A DNA stretch of 31,835 nt, taken from Acutalibacteraceae bacterium (lineage in GTDB: Bacteria > Bacillota > Clostridia > Oscillospirales > Acutalibacteraceae). The notes beneath the pieces were generated by a model. The model did no database searches. It saw only the letters and a list, made by a program, of their open reading frames with translations, and had not been told where the DNA came from. How positions within the stretch are numbered: position 1 is the first letter of the stretch; each line of letters begins with the position of its first letter. A program made the position numbers and the translations under genes. The stretch spans positions 1 to 31,835 of the forward strand of contig JAZUNC010000016.1 of assembly GCA_045603945.1 (NCBI GenBank), read 5' to 3'. Below, piece after piece: positions 3,367-31,835 of this stretch.

Positions 3367-3534
3367 TTATTTATTTGGATAATTACGACACACTCGCCAA
3401 CCCTCCTGAACCCATCGGTTTATCGTCATTTGGCTTCTATATTTGTTTTCTACACGCTCGCTGGCTTTAATCCCATTAACGGAAGCCTGCTCTATTAGCT
3501 CACTGCCTTTGTATACACTGATGATAACTCTCAT
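3367..3534 (-). CDS. Hypothetical 55-aa protein, first gene of the early operon
   Basis: Manual translation: MRVIISVYKGSELIEQASVNGIKASERVENKYRSQMTINRWVQEGWRVCRNYPNK; below the ORF-track cutoff; AT-rich leader. Confidence 0.5.
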   Translation of the reverse strand: MRVIISVYKGSELIEQASVNGIKASERVENKYRSQMTINRWVQEGWRVCRNYPNK

Positions 3535-3614
3535 AACTTTTGTACTTTTAATTGTTTTTATTACCTTTGTTTGTTTGTTTACTTAATGATTTGATTCATT
3601 AACTAATTATAGTA

Positions 3615-3645
3615 CAAATATAAGCTGATAGTTTAAATTATGCAA
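3615..3645 (-). promoter_or_regulatory. Early lytic promoter (Bacteroidota sigma-A type)
   Basis: Minus-strand TATATTTG (-7 box TAnnTTTG) at 3615-3622, with TTG 20 nt upstream. Confidence 0.6.
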
Positions 3646-3678
3646 GCTATTAGCCAATTATTTTTAATCTATTAGCTT
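3622..3678. promoter_or_regulatory. Three palindromic operators, consensus AAGCTAWTAGCTT
   Basis: aagctgatagttt (3622), aagctattagcca (3644) and aatctattagctt (3666), exactly 22 bp apart, between the divergent repressor and early operon. Confidence 0.7.
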
Positions 3679-3719
3679 TATTTGTACACATTCCAAATAA
3701 ACCAACAGCTTATTTTATT

Positions 3720-4454
3720 ATGAAACAACGTATTAAGGAGTATTTAAGATTTAAGGGTATTAAAAATATGGATTTTTCCGCTGCGATTGGTGTATCAAAC
3801 GCCTATATATCAAGCATTAAGAGAAGTATTCAACCCGACAAACTTGCTCGAATCCAACAAAATTACCCCGACCTGAACATCGAATGGCTTGTTACGGGTC
3901 GCGGTGAAATGCTTAACACACCTCAACACATGAGCGTGATAAACAACGGCACTAACAGCGACACGATGGCAAACAATATAACGATGCACAACGCTCATCA
4001 GCATTGCCATAACGCAACAACAGCTGCGTGTAATGGCGATTGTGAGCATTGTGCAATCCCCGTCGTGCCGTCGGAGCTTACAACAGCACCAAATATAGAT
4101 GTATATAATGTAGTGACTAAATTAGATAATGTAAGCCGTTACCCTCACACCGGGCAAACGCCTCGACCCGACCTCTATTACCCCATCATGAGCCGAGCCA
4201 TGGAGCCGTACATCTGCCTCGGGGATAGGCTTGCCCTCGTCTCCTTCCCCATCGGCGAAGAGGCTATCGAACCCGGCACTCCTCACACCGTCGACACGAA
4301 GTCGAAAGGGTTCATCACACGGCTGCTATTTGACCACCCCGACGGCTATTTGGCTCGGGCTTTCGACCGAGAGCGATACCCCGACTTCGTCATCAAAAGA
4401 AGCGACGTTATACGCATCTATCGCATCATCGGGCTTATCCGCGTAAGGATGTAA
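3720..4454 (+). CDS. CI-like prophage repressor (XRE HTH plus degenerate S24-like C-terminal domain)
   Basis: N-terminal HTH ending in LNIEWLVTGRGEML; C-terminal IMSRAMEPYICLGD...VDTKSKGFITRLL...VIRIYRIIG follows the S24 layout; divergent from the early operon. Confidence 0.82.
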   Translation: MKQRIKEYLRFKGIKNMDFSAAIGVSNAYISSIKRSIQPDKLARIQQNYPDLNIEWLVTGRGEMLNTPQHMSVINNGTNSDTMANNITMHNAHQHCHNATTAACNGDCEHCAIPVVPSELTTAPNIDVYNVVTKLDNVSRYPHTGQTPRPDLYYPIMSRAMEPYICLGDRLALVSFPIGEEAIEPGTPHTVDTKSKGFITRLLFDHPDGYLARAFDRERYPDFVIKRSDVIRIYRIIGLIRVRM

Positions 4455-4750: not shown

Positions 4751-5857
4751 ATGAAGATAAGCACAACACTTTTACGCAACAACGTCATGGTGCGTGTCGC
4801 ATTCACTTCCAACATTCGCAAGCACTTCAACACTGGCGTGTCGGTAGCTGACCGCTCACAATTCGATAATGGTGCCATAGTCAACAGAGAAGACGCTGCC
4901 GAGCTTAACGCGAAGATAGGTGCAAAGCTTGCCGAGGTAAAGCGAGCCATTGACTTGCTCGAAGCCCAAGGCATAGATGTAACGCCTGACACATTATCTA
5001 ACGCACTTGACAAGCGTTGTGATATAGGCAGCTTCCTCGACTTCATGGAGAGACGAATCAAAGAGCGGCCTCTGCGTGAGAACTCGCGACGCAACCACCT
5101 CATCACTCTTGCGGCTCTTCGTCGTTTCGGCCGCATACAAAGCTTCGCATCTCTCACACCTGAAAATATAATGCTATTCGATAGCTTCCTGCGAGAGGAG
5201 GATGCGACACGCAAGCAGTCAACTATCCGAGGGTATCACAAGAGCATCAAGCCGTATATAAGAGAGGCGTTGCTGTCGAGGTATATACGCGTCAATCCTT
5301 ACGACCACTTTTATGTGCCTCGTGGTGCTGCCACTCCTCGCACTCCTCTCAGTGAGAGCGAGCTGCAACGCATTATCAACGCTCACCTCCCACACATATA
5401 TATAAAGGCTCGTGACATCTTTATCTTCCAAGCTTATACGGGCTTGTCGTACGCAGACGCAATGGCTTTCGATGCGAGAGAGCATCTCATCGTGCGTGAT
5501 GGGCATTCGTTCATCTCTCATGAGCGTATCAAAACGGGGACGAAATTTTTCACACCTCTGCTGCCAAACGCGGATGCCGTTTTGTTGAAATACGGTGATA
5601 GGCTACCACGCCTGAGCAATCAAAAATATAACATGCATCTGCACGCAATCGAGGGGATTGTTGGCATTGACAAGCCGTTAACTTCACACGTTGCCCGGCA
5701 CACGTTTGCAACACTGATGTTGTCCTATGACATGCCTATGGCTGTCGTGTCGCGTATGCTCGGGCATACAGATATAAATGTAACACAGCTATACGCGAAG
5801 ATAACAAGTGACAAGGTAGAGAGTGCCACAAGCAAGCTTTGGGGCGAATTAGAGTAA
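4751..5857 (+). CDS. int: Tyrosine integrase (Bacteroidota IntDOT/IntN1-like)
   Basis: FIFQAYTGLSYAD (Ser at the first catalytic Arg position, as in IntDOT), RIKTG, SHVARHTFAT (HxxR), LGHTDINVTQLYA (His and catalytic Tyr). Confidence 0.93.
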   Translation: MKISTTLLRNNVMVRVAFTSNIRKHFNTGVSVADRSQFDNGAIVNREDAAELNAKIGAKLAEVKRAIDLLEAQGIDVTPDTLSNALDKRCDIGSFLDFMERRIKERPLRENSRRNHLITLAALRRFGRIQSFASLTPENIMLFDSFLREEDATRKQSTIRGYHKSIKPYIREALLSRYIRVNPYDHFYVPRGAATPRTPLSESELQRIINAHLPHIYIKARDIFIFQAYTGLSYADAMAFDAREHLIVRDGHSFISHERIKTGTKFFTPLLPNADAVLLKYGDRLPRLSNQKYNMHLHAIEGIVGIDKPLTSHVARHTFATLMLSYDMPMAVVSRMLGHTDINVTQLYAKITSDKVESATSKLWGELE

Positions 5858-5889
5858 AAAAAAGTAACGAGGGTTATAAACCCCCGTTA
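5856..5889 (-). terminator. Intrinsic terminator ending the minus-strand cassette, convergent with the integrase
   Basis: taacg-a-gggt / accc-c-cgtta hairpin next to an A8 run (U8 on the minus strand). Confidence 0.6.
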
Positions 5890-6072
5890 TGATATAGTTA
5901 GCGTTAGCCCTAATGGCGGCAATAGCTTTGATAACGTGTCGAGCGTTGGCGATAATTGCCCGAGTTCTATCTTGTTTATATGCTTGTAATTAACCCCCGA
6001 AAGGGCTTCAAGCTTCCTGAGAGAGTAGCCGAGCGATTTCCTACGCTCGGCTATAATTTCGTTATAGCTCAT
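5887..6072 (-). CDS. XRE/Cro-C1 HTH protein
   Basis: IAERRKSLGYSLRKLEALSGVNYKHINKIELGQLSPTLDTLSKL is a canonical HTH_3 pattern. Confidence 0.85.
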   Translation of the reverse strand: MSYNEIIAERRKSLGYSLRKLEALSGVNYKHINKIELGQLSPTLDTLSKLLPPLGLTLTIS

Positions 6073-6259
6073 ACGGCCAATACACTATTGCTGTTATGTT
6101 ACCGTTTTCATCTTCAAGCTCATGCTCGAAGCGTTTGAGAGCTTTGTTGTAAAATAGCTCTCCGTTAACTACTTGGAGGTTGTCGTTTTCATCCTCCCAT
6201 GTAAAATAACCCTGACGAGGGTTAAAGTCGCTTCCTTTAATTTCTTTTACTTTTGCCAT
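6062..6259 (-). CDS. Small acidic hypothetical protein
   Basis: 65 aa with roughly twice as many D/E as K/R; overlaps the HTH gene start. Confidence 0.7.
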   Translation of the reverse strand: MAKVKEIKGSDFNPRQGYFTWEDENDNLQVVNGELFYNKALKRFEHELEDENGNITAIVYWPYEL

Positions 6260-20923: not shown

Positions 20924-21419
20924 CTATTTCGCTTTCACTCATTGCTATCTCAGGTGTTGCATCGTTGAGTATGTTAACACCCAACGAAAGCGACCCCTGT
21001 ATCTCGGCTTGCTGTTGCTGCTTGTTTTGCCATCGCTCGGGAGCGATGTTAGTCAAAAGGAAAATGGCAGCACCGACATTAGGCGGCACATCGACATCCT
21101 CCGTTATCTGCTTTTTAATTACGGGGTTGCCGTCTTTATCACTCGTGTACTCCGTCTTTCGTCGCACCCACTTATACCCCTTTGCCGACCTTGCAAGGCT
21201 GTCTACCAACTCGTGTTCGAGGTTAGCGGCAAAGTGCTTTTGTGCTTCCGCTATCATTTTAGCGAAGTCCTCTCGCTTCATCCATCGCTCGAATGTCCGC
21301 TCAGATATGCCGAAGTGCTTACTTAACGATGCCACGGTTGCACCTCCATGCAGCTTTAATCCGTTGCATATTATCCACTGACGGATGTCGGCAAACATTT
21401 CCGTTGTTAATTTACTCAT
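20910..21419 (-). CDS. terS: Terminase small subunit (HTH)
   Basis: HTH LSKHFGISERTFERW and VPPNVGAAIFLLTN motif; directly upstream of TerL. Likely start MSKLTTEM at 21419. Confidence 0.7.
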   Translation of the reverse strand: MSKLTTEMFADIRQWIICNGLKLHGGATVASLSKHFGISERTFERWMKREDFAKMIAEAQKHFAANLEHELVDSLARSAKGYKWVRRKTEYTSDKDGNPVIKKQITEDVDVPPNVGAAIFLLTNIAPERWQNKQQQQAEIQGSLSLGVNILNDATPEIAMSESEIDAER

Positions 21420-22341
21420 CGTCATTTTTACTTCTCTTAGGTTCATTTGTAAATGGTGCATCTTCGGGGTATGCATCGTACTCGATATTACCCTTACACC
21501 CATATACTCGTAATATCTTCGGAGCTATGTATCTATAACTAATCCGATGATGCAATCTACCGCCATTCATCTTTTGCCTCTCTGCGTGTATAGCCGACGG
21601 GTACGTTATAGGGCATACGAGCGACTTGTTCAACAGCTTACACTCCTTGTATAAGTCCGTTAAGCCCCCAGTTGCCGTCACACTCTGCACCTGATTTAAG
21701 ACCAATCCCGTACGAAAAGATGCTATAAAATACCCCTCGTTTAATGCTGCGACAAATTGCGACGTGTCGTCATCTTGCACACCTCGCTCACCCCTATATA
21801 CATAAGGCATTAATACAAAAGTCGTATTCATTATTTTTGCACGCAAAAGCCCTCTATCCAATTCTCCTGCATTAAATAGTTCACCCGTTTGCGAAAGCCC
21901 GAACAACCCGACGTGATAACGCCTCATCATTTTCTCGACTCCTCCAAAAACAATCTCGAAATTTTTTAAAGTTGCTTGCCCTTTGTACTTCCCGAAAGGT
22001 CTGTTTTCGTAACAAACAGTGTCGTCATCTATTACCACATAAAAATCTATGGATAAAGATTTTGCGATGTCGTAAAACATGTTACGAGCTTGCCCGGCAC
22101 TGCGACGAGCTTTACTCGGACGATGGATATAATCATATCGCAGACGAGCCTCCCTCATGTCAAAGATATGTAAATTAAAGCCGTATGAGCTTGCAACTTC
22201 CTTATAACTTTCAACATCATCCGCTTCATCATCTATAACGACATGTAGCTTATCGACGGGATAACCTATTTTCACGAAATAATTTACCGTTCTTATATTC
22301 TTTGCTCGGTGGTACGACGGTATAAAAATATTCGGCATCAT
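21412..22341 (-). CDS. GT-A fold glycosyltransferase, TAGT/GREB1-like
   Basis: IFIPSYHRA, AGQARN, VVIDDD (DxD-type) and DDDTSQ motifs. Confidence 0.7.
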   Translation of the reverse strand: MMPNIFIPSYHRAKNIRTVNYFVKIGYPVDKLHVVIDDEADDVESYKEVASSYGFNLHIFDMREARLRYDYIHRPSKARRSAGQARNMFYDIAKSLSIDFYVVIDDDTVCYENRPFGKYKGQATLKNFEIVFGGVEKMMRRYHVGLFGLSQTGELFNAGELDRGLLRAKIMNTTFVLMPYVYRGERGVQDDDTSQFVAALNEGYFIASFRTGLVLNQVQSVTATGGLTDLYKECKLLNKSLVCPITYPSAIHAERQKMNGGRLHHRISYRYIAPKILRVYGCKGNIEYDAYPEDAPFTNEPKRSKNDDE

Positions 22342-23120
22342 AACTCGTTTTGTTTATTCGCAATCCTCAACAACTCATCTTGTATAAATCCGTCAATGCT
22401 TCCATCAACCAACACTAAACGCAATCTCTCCATTACACGCTGCTCCTCCTCAGAGGCATTAAATGCATAGTAGTTCGCTACATTTTCGAAATCAATTTTA
22501 ATAAATCGATACGCGAAAAGTTTAAGTACTTCTCTCTGCTCTTCCGTTAATTTATATTCTTCGAGTGCTTTTATTTTCGCATTAAACTTCTCCAAATTAA
22601 CACAATCAACGAGCTTTATATTTGGCTTCTCCTCTGGCTGGTAATAAATGTCACTAAACGAAACATCCGATAAAATCTCCGTCATGGGACTGCTTCCTGA
22701 ATCCTGCGAGGATGCCTCACTCTCAATTGTTACTCCCCAATCCTCGGGCTTTACATTCCATCGCTCGGCTGCTACCTGTAATTCGTCGTAGTTCCATGAA
22801 AGATTTGCGGCACTCGTAGCGTTATCTGCGAGTGCCATGCGTCGCCCCTCTTCACTATCTATGTCGAGGTCTGTACGACGAACCACAACAAGCTCATCTC
22901 CTGTTGTGTCAATTATGCGGATGTTTTTGCGATTGAGAGACCTTGCAGCCTCCACGATGCCGTTGCCGGCGATAATGTTGTTGTCCTTGTCGACAACAAT
23001 TGAACGACCGAAACCGTTCTCCCTCACCGACTTTCGGAGTAGCTCCATGCCCTCCTCGGTGTGGTCGTTGAAGTTGTGTGCGTCATAATGTAACGCGTCA
23101 ATGTCATTATATTTGTTCAT
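22338..23120 (-). CDS. ParB/Srx-like domain protein with an additional C-terminal helical domain
   Basis: HNFNDH...SVRENGFGRSIVVDKDNNIIAGNG...MALADN. Likely start MNKYND at 23120. Confidence 0.75.
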   Translation of the reverse strand: MNKYNDIDALHYDAHNFNDHTEEGMELLRKSVRENGFGRSIVVDKDNNIIAGNGIVEAARSLNRKNIRIIDTTGDELVVVRRTDLDIDSEEGRRMALADNATSAANLSWNYDELQVAAERWNVKPEDWGVTIESEASSQDSGSSPMTEILSDVSFSDIYYQPEEKPNIKLVDCVNLEKFNAKIKALEEYKLTEEQREVLKLFAYRFIKIDFENVANYYAFNASEEEQRVMERLRLVLVDGSIDGFIQDELLRIANKQNEL

Positions 23121-23155
23121 AAGCCTACTCCCGTAGGCGATGTAGGTGTGCGAAA

Positions 23156-23195
23156 CAAAGGTAGCAATTTTATTTGAAAAGCAAAATAAAATCGC
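23156..23195 (-). promoter_or_regulatory. Putative late-operon promoter with overlapping inverted repeat
   Basis: Minus-strand TACCTTTG (23156-23163) and TTTG (23182-23185); inverted repeat attttattt / aaataaaat at 23167-23192. Confidence 0.5.
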
Positions 23196-23226
23196 ATTTT
23201 TTAAGAAAAAAAATATTTGATAATAT

Positions 23227-23257
23227 TTTGTATTTTCAATAATAATTACTATCTTTG
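23227..23257 (+). promoter_or_regulatory. Consensus Bacteroidota sigma-A promoter of accessory cassette 2
   Basis: TTTG (23227-23230), 19-nt spacer, TATCTTTG (23250-23257). Confidence 0.75.
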
Positions 23258-23261
23258 TAGT

Positions 23262-23452
23262 GCAATCATAGAGTGATTGCAACGGATAATTCCTGATGCC
23301 GAGAAAAGAAAGGAATAACCCCCAAAATCTTACACGATGAAATTTAGAATTGAAGTCGAAGTTAAGAATTGGAAATTTAAAGTCTTAACAATTAAGATTG
23401 TTAAGTAGTTTCCAAAGGGGGTGGACGGGGTCAACGTCCGCCCCCTCTTGGG
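23262..23452 (+). ncRNA. Putative structured leader or small RNA (four hairpins)
   Basis: Stems: gcaatca-tagag-tgattgc; attcct...aggaat; cttaacaat-taag-attgttaag; ccaa-agggggtggacg...cgtccgccccct-c-ttgg. Confidence 0.5.
23336..23408 (+). pseudogene. Small amphipathic peptide frame one base out of register with its ATG
   Basis: ATG AAA ATT TAG at 23336, whereas the +1 frame reads KFRIEVEVKNWKFKVLTIKIVK-stop. Confidence 0.4.
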
Positions 23453-31638: not shown

Positions 31639-31835
31639 TTAAATGTTGATATTCAAAAAATCGACCGTTGCATAGATAGCCTCCCTTTTGTCATCTTCCG
31701 ATACGAGTGTTGGCTTGCCCGACGGCTTTGTGATGAAGCTTCCATACTGCTCAACTATTGTCTTTTTGCCGAGTAGCTTTTCCAGCTCTCCGAGAGATAT
31801 AAGTGTCGTCTTCGTTACAACGCTCTCATCTACTC
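31639..31835 (-). CDS. DUF2800-type nuclease, 3' end (continues from position 1 across the origin)
   Basis: Frame continues ...KPSGKPTLVSEDDKREAIYATVDFLNINI, with stop TAA at 31639-31641. Confidence 0.85.
   Translation of the reverse strand, partial: VDESVVTKTTLISLGELEKLLGKKTIVEQYGSFITKPSGKPTLVSEDDKREAIYATVDFLNINI
31695..31835. repeat. Terminal direct repeat, copy 2 (circular-contig overlap)
   Basis: Identical to bases 1-141. Confidence 0.97.

Follow-up and report, generated by a model that had tools for sequence, protein, structure and literature searches.

We analyzed the gene at positions 3720–4454 (+) of contig JAZUNC010000016.1 (GenBank assembly GCA_045603945.1, filed under Acutalibacteraceae); the whole contig of 31,835 nucleotides is called the window here. 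The gene encodes a CI-like repressor of 244 amino acids (aa) followed by a stop codon. Judged from its sequence and a structural model, the C-terminal domain of this protein is a non-catalytic module of S24 fold, lacking the Ser, the Lys and the Ala-Gly bond on which autocleavage depends. Most probably, the protein is the lysogeny-maintenance repressor of a complete, circular temperate phage of Bacteroidota of approximately 31.7 kb, and combines a non-cleaving LexA-fold tail with a putative zinc (Zn) knuckle hinge; its derepression may proceed by a trans-acting factor.

The C-terminal domain has the LexA fold and is predicted to be non-catalytic

The start of the gene at 3720 is supported because homologues conserve the first 16 residues; the public gene call for the same protein (P0001, 228 aa) begins 16 codons later. 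The open reading frame (ORF) and its motifs stood at the positions given in the original prediction, which had been made from the DNA letters. These motifs are SRAMEP (residues 158–163, 4191–4208), GFITRLL (residues 197–203, 4308–4328), HNAHQHCH (residues 90–97) and CNGDCEHC (residues 104–111, 4029–4052), the last with CX3CX2C spacing.

An AlphaFold model of the repressor was built on 80 homologues and had a mean predicted local distance difference test score (pLDDT) of 77. It comprised a helical N-terminal domain (residues 1–60), a stretch left unmodelled (residues 69–107, pLDDT <50) and, starting near residue 108, a beta domain. Foldseek matched the C-terminal model to the C-terminal domain of LexA (7b5g_G; E 3e-4, template-modelling score 0.72 on the target), and VIA-align superposed residues 110–242 on LexA 73–198 (1jhh_A) with Z 13.5 and a root-mean-square deviation of 2.4 Å over 120 residues; the corresponding Z values were 10.5 for lambda CI and 8.9 for 186 CI (2fjr, 2fkd). 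The match begins at LexA residue 73, and therefore the cleavage-site strand of LexA has a counterpart here (IPV, residues 113–115). The domain (residues 113–244, 4056–4451, +) thus shows the LexA-type C-terminal beta fold that is expected of an S24 protein, including the cleavage-site strand.

Sequence-based searches did not reach this fold. The window protein had no Pfam match to PF00717 (S24) and was also missed when the genome that contains it was searched with PF00717 at E ≤ 0.01, the threshold at which 56 of the 80 homologues matched. NCBIfam held no family for the repressor or for the early small ORFs. Searches of PDB sequences with the family profile, or with P0085, a canonical relative that keeps Ser and Lys, reached no S24 entry and returned only helix-turn-helix (HTH) proteins (SinR); therefore, a fold search was needed.

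Eighteen window-type sequences (alignment A3) and 17 canonical Ser/Lys relatives (A4) were aligned separately, and the two profiles were compared using hhalign (probability 100%, E 8e-57). Ala160, encoded by gcc at 4197–4199, fell on the invariant Ser, the nucleophile of the G-x-S-M-x-P motif, and Arg201 (4320–4322), which is invariant in A3, fell on the invariant Lys that acts as the general base. The Lys column was displaced by one residue, to T200, in one of two MAFFT alignments, and neither T200 nor R201 is Lys. Residues 113–135 (IPVVPSELTTAPNIDVYNVVTKL), read from the sequence only, contain no Ala-Gly, Cys-Gly or Gly-Gly. Because the Ser, the Lys and the scissile Ala-Gly are all missing, RecA-stimulated self-cleavage is not expected. 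A CI-like repressor without the autocleavage dyad had been proposed in the original prediction, together with a profile alignment and an AlphaFold model as the means of placing the dyad; both were carried out, revealed no intact Ser/Lys pair and bore the proposal out.

Loss of the dyad extends through the family

A word-indexed search for homologues gave 91 clusters, 79 of which, together with the window protein, make up an alignment of 80 sequences (A2). The 12 clusters outside A2 are P0001, which is the window's own shorter call, P0007, a 340-aa tandem form, and ten truncated, N-terminal-only or atypical-length forms. The Ser column of A2 holds Ala in 53 sequences, Thr in 18, Ser in 7 and Lys in 2. 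Ser and Lys occur together in only 5 of the 80 (P0079, P0080, P0083–P0085), and the dyad is absent from the other 75. In a sister C-terminal type (P0057–P0077; ENTMTQ ... SILCYL), which makes up 18 of the 80, Thr takes the place of Ser and Cys that of Lys; two more sequences have the combination Lys/Cys.

An exhaustive search of 50%-identity representatives yielded 4738 proteins at E ≤ 1e-3, many of them through the N-terminal domain alone; among the 150 listed, 118 matched the C-terminal domain profile. Of these 118 representatives, among the matches listed, 99 have Arg at position 201, 9 have Lys and 4 have Cys. In the Ser column, 51 have Ser and 44 have Ala, and Ser and Lys are kept together in 18. 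On the evidence of these alignments, the window protein is a member of a large Bacteroidota repressor family in which a conserved Arg takes the place of the S24 Lys, and loss of the dyad is old and family-wide, not a peculiarity of the window gene.

Four cysteines are invariant in a diverging hinge

The hinge between the two domains (residues 89–112, 3984–4055, +) carries a His/Cys cluster. Besides C104 (4029–4031), C108 (4041–4043) and C111 (4050–4052), which form the CX3CX2C motif, it contains a fourth cysteine, C96 (4005–4007), that the original prediction had not counted. The motif occurs in 6 of the 91 clusters, namely the window's own and P0002–P0006; the other 85 lack it and have an acidic hinge of the type DAEEMxVEELP. 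Within this subclade the conservation that had been called for was found: all six clusters (7 sequences, A5) have C96, C104, C108 and C111, and likewise N98, G106 and D107, without exception, so that the hinge holds a conserved set of four ligand-type residues.

Three types of hinge are found in the six Cys clusters, and they agree at 8–11 of the 23 non-Cys hinge positions, compared with 74–84% identity elsewhere in the protein. By this comparison the hinge cysteines are more than chance, since all four are invariant while the hinge around them diverges. At position 93 the window has His, four relatives have Cys and one has Asn; H110 is kept in 5 of the 6 Cys-hinge clusters. The His-rich run as such is peculiar to the window, where 5 His lie in the 32 residues before the domain, versus 0–1 in five relatives.

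Cys-rich hinges also recur at a distance. At least three Cys in the 32 residues before the domain were counted in 6 of the 118 representatives (among the matches listed), versus 2 of 654 other stretches of the same proteins; the Fisher p of 2e-4 for this excess is overstated, the sequences being related. The six distant hinges, among the matches listed, are those of P0198 (CNRNCENC, then C and CPEC), P0188 (CKEC-x4-CLNC), P0125, P0106, P0171 and P0166. In all six, the Cys cluster ends 0–30 residues before the P-x-V-P strand that opens the domain, and two of them, P0188 and P0166, keep Ser and Lys. Zn knuckles typically show spacings like CxxC-x4-CxxC.

The original prediction had treated the Cys cluster as causally tied to loss of the dyad. 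This tie was not supported: the dyad is lost in 75 of 80 sequences and the cluster is present in only 6 of 91 clusters, and Cys-rich hinges occur with intact Ser/Lys, so the two features are independent. That the Cys-rich hinge recurs independently of a live protease argues for a structural or geometric metal knuckle and against an origin as a replacement for autocleavage. Going by these patterns, the Cys cluster is probably a metal (Zn) knuckle, and we are moderately confident that the four-Cys hinge holds a metal of any kind. A role of the cluster as a redox or metal sensor is possible but unsupported.

The hinge was also approached in other ways. AlphaFold given the seven A5 sequences only returned a mean pLDDT of 43 with the domain unfolded, and was uninformative on the hinge. 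A complex prediction with two copies of residues 86–244 and two Zn scored 0.39 against a mark of 0.42, which gives no verdict and is evidence neither way. A word-based homologue search limited to residues 86–135 found the window's own protein only. A radical SAM reading of CX3CX2C was considered and rejected: the motif lies in a 24-residue hinge flanked by an HTH and a LexA fold, and no Pfam radical-SAM match was obtained. In a literature search that covered few subscription journals, we came across no CI-like repressor described as having a cysteine or zinc hinge, and no account of this dyad-less Bacteroidota family.

The C-terminal module is combined with different DNA-binding domains

The N-terminal HTH domain (residues 1–66, 3720–3917, +; pLDDT 79–89 in the model) closes with the conserved segment PDLNIEWLVTGRGEML. 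In structural comparisons using VIA-align, it matched P22 c2 (Z 7.7), SinR (Z 7.3) and the 434 repressor and Cro (Z 6.7–7.0). By sequence, the profile matched SinR in PDB at E 5e-5 and PHROG repressor families at E 5e-5 to 2e-4, and Pfam HTH_19 matched the repressor at E 0.25 only. The protein has in this domain the N-terminal HTH of CI/Cro-type (XRE) lysogeny repressors.

N-terminal and C-terminal identities to the window protein are uncoupled across its relatives. P0083 is 92% identical over residues 1–66 and 23% identical in the C-terminal domain, where Ser/Lys are intact; P0023 (91% and 49%) has Ala/Arg and an acidic hinge; P0059 (82% and 27%) has Thr/Cys; and P0006 (55% and 83%) has the Cys hinge. 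The seven Cys-hinge sequences contain five N-terminal variants, which differ in the region of the recognition helix. Within the repressor gene, the G+C content (GC) is 30–39% over the first 180 bases and 55–59% over 4125–4424, a break that is as expected of a recombinant and fits a recent joining of a foreign C-terminal module. To judge from these sequence comparisons, the Cys hinge is most likely an addition to a single C-terminal module, which has been combined by shuffling with at least five different DNA-binding domains.

An Asn/Gly-rich segment (MSVINNGTNSDTMANN; residues 67–88, 3918–3983, +), modelled as disordered (pLDDT <50), lies between the HTH domain and the hinge. Its identity to the window is 59–91% in most non-canonical relatives and 13–27% in eight; it is gapped in 4 of the 5 canonical-dyad relatives and 50% identical in the fifth, P0079. 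Most sequences of the three dead-domain types conserve the segment, which is nearly invariant where the C-terminal domains are only 27–49% identical. The same HTH is also followed by similar N/G-rich stretches in P0081 and P0088–P0090, which are 135 aa long and finish with a helical tail. Some relatives, such as P0007 (340 aa), carry tandem copies (two or more) of the N-terminal HTH and Asn/Gly segment before one C-terminal domain, and several 50%-identity representatives show 2–5 matched stretches, among the matches listed.

The repressor gene lies at the CI position of a complete phage genome

Bases 1–141 and 31695–31835 of the window are an exact direct repeat. This terminal overlap of 141 bp, spanning the ends of the whole contig, indicates that the window is a circular or terminally redundant, complete phage genome of approximately 31.7 kb and not a host-flanked integrated prophage. 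The repressor gene is divergent from the first minus-strand ORF, which runs leftwards from 3534, across 185 bp of 21–23% GC, and the integration module lies beside it. This is the classical CI site, with the divergent switch characteristic of CI/Cro-type lysogeny repressors. The divergent ORF (3367–3534, −; 55 aa) opens the leftward early operon where Cro would be, and no family was recognized for it. Downstream of the repressor lies a tyrosine integrase (4751–5857, +; PF00589 E 2e-14, PF13102 E 5e-9, phrog_1 E 1e-32).

The AT-rich divergent control region (3535–3719) contains putative operators and promoters. Three copies of the octamer CTATTAGC lie within 3492–3676, two of them 22 bp apart at 3647 and 3669 and the third at 3492. 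TAnnTTTG boxes, which we take to be the Bacteroides −7 promoter motif, lie at 3562–3569 (+) and 3615–3622 (−), one per strand. This motif is enriched in the window as a whole, with 47 matches versus 24.5 ± 5.4 in shuffled sequences, an enrichment that fits a Bacteroidota host. The exact palindrome GCTANTAGC was considered as an operator and rejected, its single occurrence being no more than chance.

Relatives of the phage were found in Bacteroidota throughout. Portal homologues in cultured phages amounted to 148 records, all from Bacteroidota (Bacteroides 98, Phocaeicola 24, Parabacteroides 15, Cellulophaga 7, and others), and the named genomes with relatives of the repressor N-terminal domain were likewise all Bacteroidota, mostly gut Bacteroidales bins. 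The best cultured relative is Bacteroides phage BS-TP3, the portal of which is 45.5% identical and the repressor of which (gp28) is of the canonical Ser/Lys type. A GTDB scan found distant Bacteroidales relatives only, and among 200 genomes from the family to which the bin belongs, 6 weak matches were obtained, mostly to the N-terminal part. In IMG/VR, the family alignment retrieved distant matches to the N-terminal domain only and the portal retrieved none; in JGI metagenomes, the hinge and C-terminal domain retrieved three irrelevant short matches only.

The rest of the genome bin has a different appearance. It encodes RecA, a LexA of the classical winged-helix type in which Ala-Gly, Ser and Lys are intact, and a second XRE-S24 protein (contig C52: L057 at 1219–1854, +; L058 at 1477–2136, −), and no SusD family member was found in its 1.23 Mb at 72% completeness. 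Its GC is 42.2%, versus 45.8% for the phage, and when the remainder of the bin was searched with the phage by BLAST, for spacers or att sites, there was no match. Since the relatives of the phage are all Bacteroidota and the bin is by its looks another organism, the phage contig is probably mis-binned, and the host was therefore taken from the phage's relatives. By this relationship, the window represents a temperate phage lineage of gut Bacteroidota. The earlier description of a prophage of an anaerobe was thus borne out for the phage lineage, with its relatives in gut Bacteroidales, but not by the bin in which the contig had been filed.

Nearly all remaining phage genes are on the minus strand. 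They encode DNA polymerase A, a DUF2800 nuclease, an ssDNA-binding protein, an SNF2 helicase and a VapE-type primase-helicase; terminase, portal, a ClpP-like head protease and a tape measure protein; and an M15 endolysin. Just upstream of the terminase genes, at 21412–23282 (−), a TET-associated glycosyltransferase (PF20691, E 4e-11) adjoins a 314-aa ParB-like nuclease or methyltransferase-like protein; given this glycosyltransferase/methyltransferase-like pair, the bases of the phage DNA may be modified. An early protein of 238 aa (2092–2808, −) contains a series of near-identical repeats of 9–10 residues (VCGNATIKE, VCDNATVNY and so on) and matches the YdcK beta-solenoid repeat at E 5e-10; the repeats also keep the other reading frames open over long distances. 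At the end of the late operon, facing the integrase, a 65-aa ORF without a family overlaps by 11 bases a 61-aa HTH_3 protein (PF01381, E 4e-10) that has weak matches to the HipB/Y4mF antitoxins and to RstR (5887–6259, −). This pair could be toxin-antitoxin-like or regulatory.

Possible routes of derepression

We propose that the N-terminal HTH would bind operators in the 185-bp control region and repress the leftward early operon. The dead S24 domain would serve dimerization and cooperativity, as the corresponding domain does in LexA and lambda CI, and the Zn knuckle of the hinge would fix the geometry between the DNA-binding and dimerization domains. The repressor would be unable to inactivate itself on RecA filaments, a property predicted for the whole family, and derepression would proceed via a trans-acting factor, either an antirepressor or a protease not yet recognizable. 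Because the whole family shares the loss of the dyad, a requirement for such a factor is the likeliest explanation of how repression is lifted; taken by itself, we consider it an evenly balanced proposition.

Several observations weigh against this account. The window protein falls below the Pfam S24 thresholds, and the domain call rests on the model (mean pLDDT 77) and the homologues. The candidate operators are repeated octamers only, and the model, with a pLDDT of <50 in the hinge, does not show a folded knuckle. The ORFs that were scanned against Pfam, PHROG and NCBIfam yielded no antirepressor, Bro, KilA or ImmA-type protease family; seven small early ORFs have no family, and the trans-acting factor is arrived at by exclusion. 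A LexA-controlled antirepressor of the 186/Gifsy kind is unlikely, because Bacteroidales lack both canonical and non-canonical LexA, as stated in the accessible text of the report (PMC8565304). Moreover, according to the accessible part of a 2026 preprint, DNA damage reliably induces Bacteroidales prophages that have 'complete' CI-like repressors; the dyad was not analyzed there, and if dyad-less repressors are among those prophages, a RecA- or damage-dependent route without the dyad would be implied.

Among the alternatives, it seems unlikely that there is no dedicated inactivation at all, with repression lost stochastically or through Lon/Clp turnover and the Cys cluster serving purely as a structural zinc site. 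The failure to recognize an antirepressor or dedicated protease in the ORFs scanned would agree with such passive loss, as would a preprint abstract that calls temperate gut phages 'predominantly inactive'. However, the conserved Arg201 and the retained motif of the former active site (AMEP...GD) suggest a selected input function beyond dimerization, and the active shuffling of C-terminal modules between immunity types suggests the same.

A further explanation, which we rate as improbable, is that the four hinge Cys, with H93 and H110, bind Zn or an iron-sulfur (Fe-S) cluster, and that oxygen, peroxide or metal starvation releases the repressor, giving RecA-independent induction. It would account for four invariant Cys in a fast-evolving hinge and for the exchange of Cys and His at position 93, as for a metal ligand. 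The hinge is also aptly placed for allostery, directly before the strand matching LexA residues 73–75, and its CX3CX2C spacing is presumably akin to the HX3CX2C found in RsrA and other anti-sigma factors that bind zinc. The hosts of the phage lineage are gut anaerobes, and the lack of either LexA type in Bacteroidales, as given in the text available for PMC8565304, also favors a route of this kind. In the available portion of a study of a Staphylococcus phage CI without a protease site, 'redox-mediated repressor inactivation' was proposed (PMC12628705), and a table in a review, itself accessible in part, names 'repressor oxidation and destabilization' as a mechanism (PMC13760530). Against such a sensor, loss of the dyad is family-wide whereas the cluster is confined to 6 of 91 clusters, so that the cluster is no general replacement for autocleavage; the Cys-rich hinges of P0188 and P0166, with intact Ser and Lys, fit a structural role; and the hinge is modelled at low confidence.

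Self-cleavage with non-canonical residues, for example S158 or T200 as the nucleophile and K196 or R201 as the base, is scarcely credible: a Ser beside Arg is kept in two close relatives, P0067 and P0069, and in 33 of the 118 representatives (among the matches listed) and K196 is conserved within the subclade, but the nucleophile position is Ala in 53 of 80 sequences, exchange of this Ser for Ala abolishes cleavage of E. coli LexA, residues 113–135 offer no Ala-Gly, Cys-Gly or Gly-Gly, and K196 is Asn in the neighboring clade.

Discussion

The window repressor resembles LexA and lambda CI in its order of DNA-binding domain, hinge and C-terminal beta domain, and its gene forms a divergent switch beside the integrase. 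It differs from them in having Ala160 for Ser, Arg201 for Lys and no Ala-Gly, in scoring below the Pfam S24 thresholds, and in the long conserved Asn/Gly segment and Cys4 hinge inserted between its domains. With the canonical S24 repressors of the same phage group (P0079, P0080, P0083–P0085 and BS-TP3 gp28) it shares the N-terminal family. Unlike the window protein, these keep Ser and Lys (GSSMEP/GDSM... and ...K-E-L) and have a short hinge without a Cys cluster, in four of five cases also without the Asn/Gly segment; their C-terminal identity to it is 20–23%. Zinc-thiolate switches, such as the zinc-binding anti-sigma (ZAS) factor RsrA and Hsp33, and Fe-S regulators, such as Wbl, FNR and SoxR, presumably share with it a short Cys-rich regulator segment and one distant Cys, but none of them has a sequence or fold relationship to the window repressor.

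By analogy, the closest functional parallels may be CI of coliphage 186, which is subject to Tum, and the Salmonella Gifsy repressors, in which the C-terminal domain is a non-catalytic oligomerization domain; the 186 CI C-terminal domain was matched at Z 8.9. The Gifsy repressors are inactivated by trans-acting antirepressors, according to the part of that study available (PMC3121763). In contrast to these systems, no antirepressor was recognized among the phage ORFs scanned, and the fold is much nearer to LexA than to 186 CI. Furthermore, the 186 and Gifsy antirepressors are under LexA control, whereas Bacteroidales lack LexA (PMC8565304, accessible text). Another parallel is the truncated CI of Staphylococcus phage phiMBL3 ('HiLOS' oxidative induction), likewise a CI without a proteolytic site, for which redox inactivation was proposed (PMC12628705, portion available). 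Unlike the window protein, phiMBL3 CI lacks the whole C-terminal domain and is encoded next to an ImmA-like metalloprotease, and no Cys cluster is reported for it in that portion.

The induction of gut Bacteroidales prophages is poorly understood, and the order is described in the accessible text of PMC8565304 as having no known LexA. In the 2026 preprint, as far as its text is available, a 'complete' CI-like repressor is by its mere presence taken to predict inducibility by DNA damage. Our results indicate that the presence of an S24 domain is insufficient as a predictor, as most members of this family keep the fold and not the chemistry. It is doubtful that the Cys4 (and His) hinge is a metal-thiolate or Fe-S switch sensing oxygen, peroxide or metal limitation, as one among several swappable input modules (intact S24, Ala/Arg, Thr/Cys and Cys hinge) on the same DNA-binding domain; if so, swapping C-terminal input modules would change what wakes the prophage. 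The family offers a natural experiment: DNA-binding domains that are almost identical occur fused to an intact S24 domain, to a dead domain of either of two kinds, or to a dead domain preceded by a four-Cys hinge. Comparing these C-terminal types could reveal non-SOS induction signals in the gut, possibly including redox or metal input.

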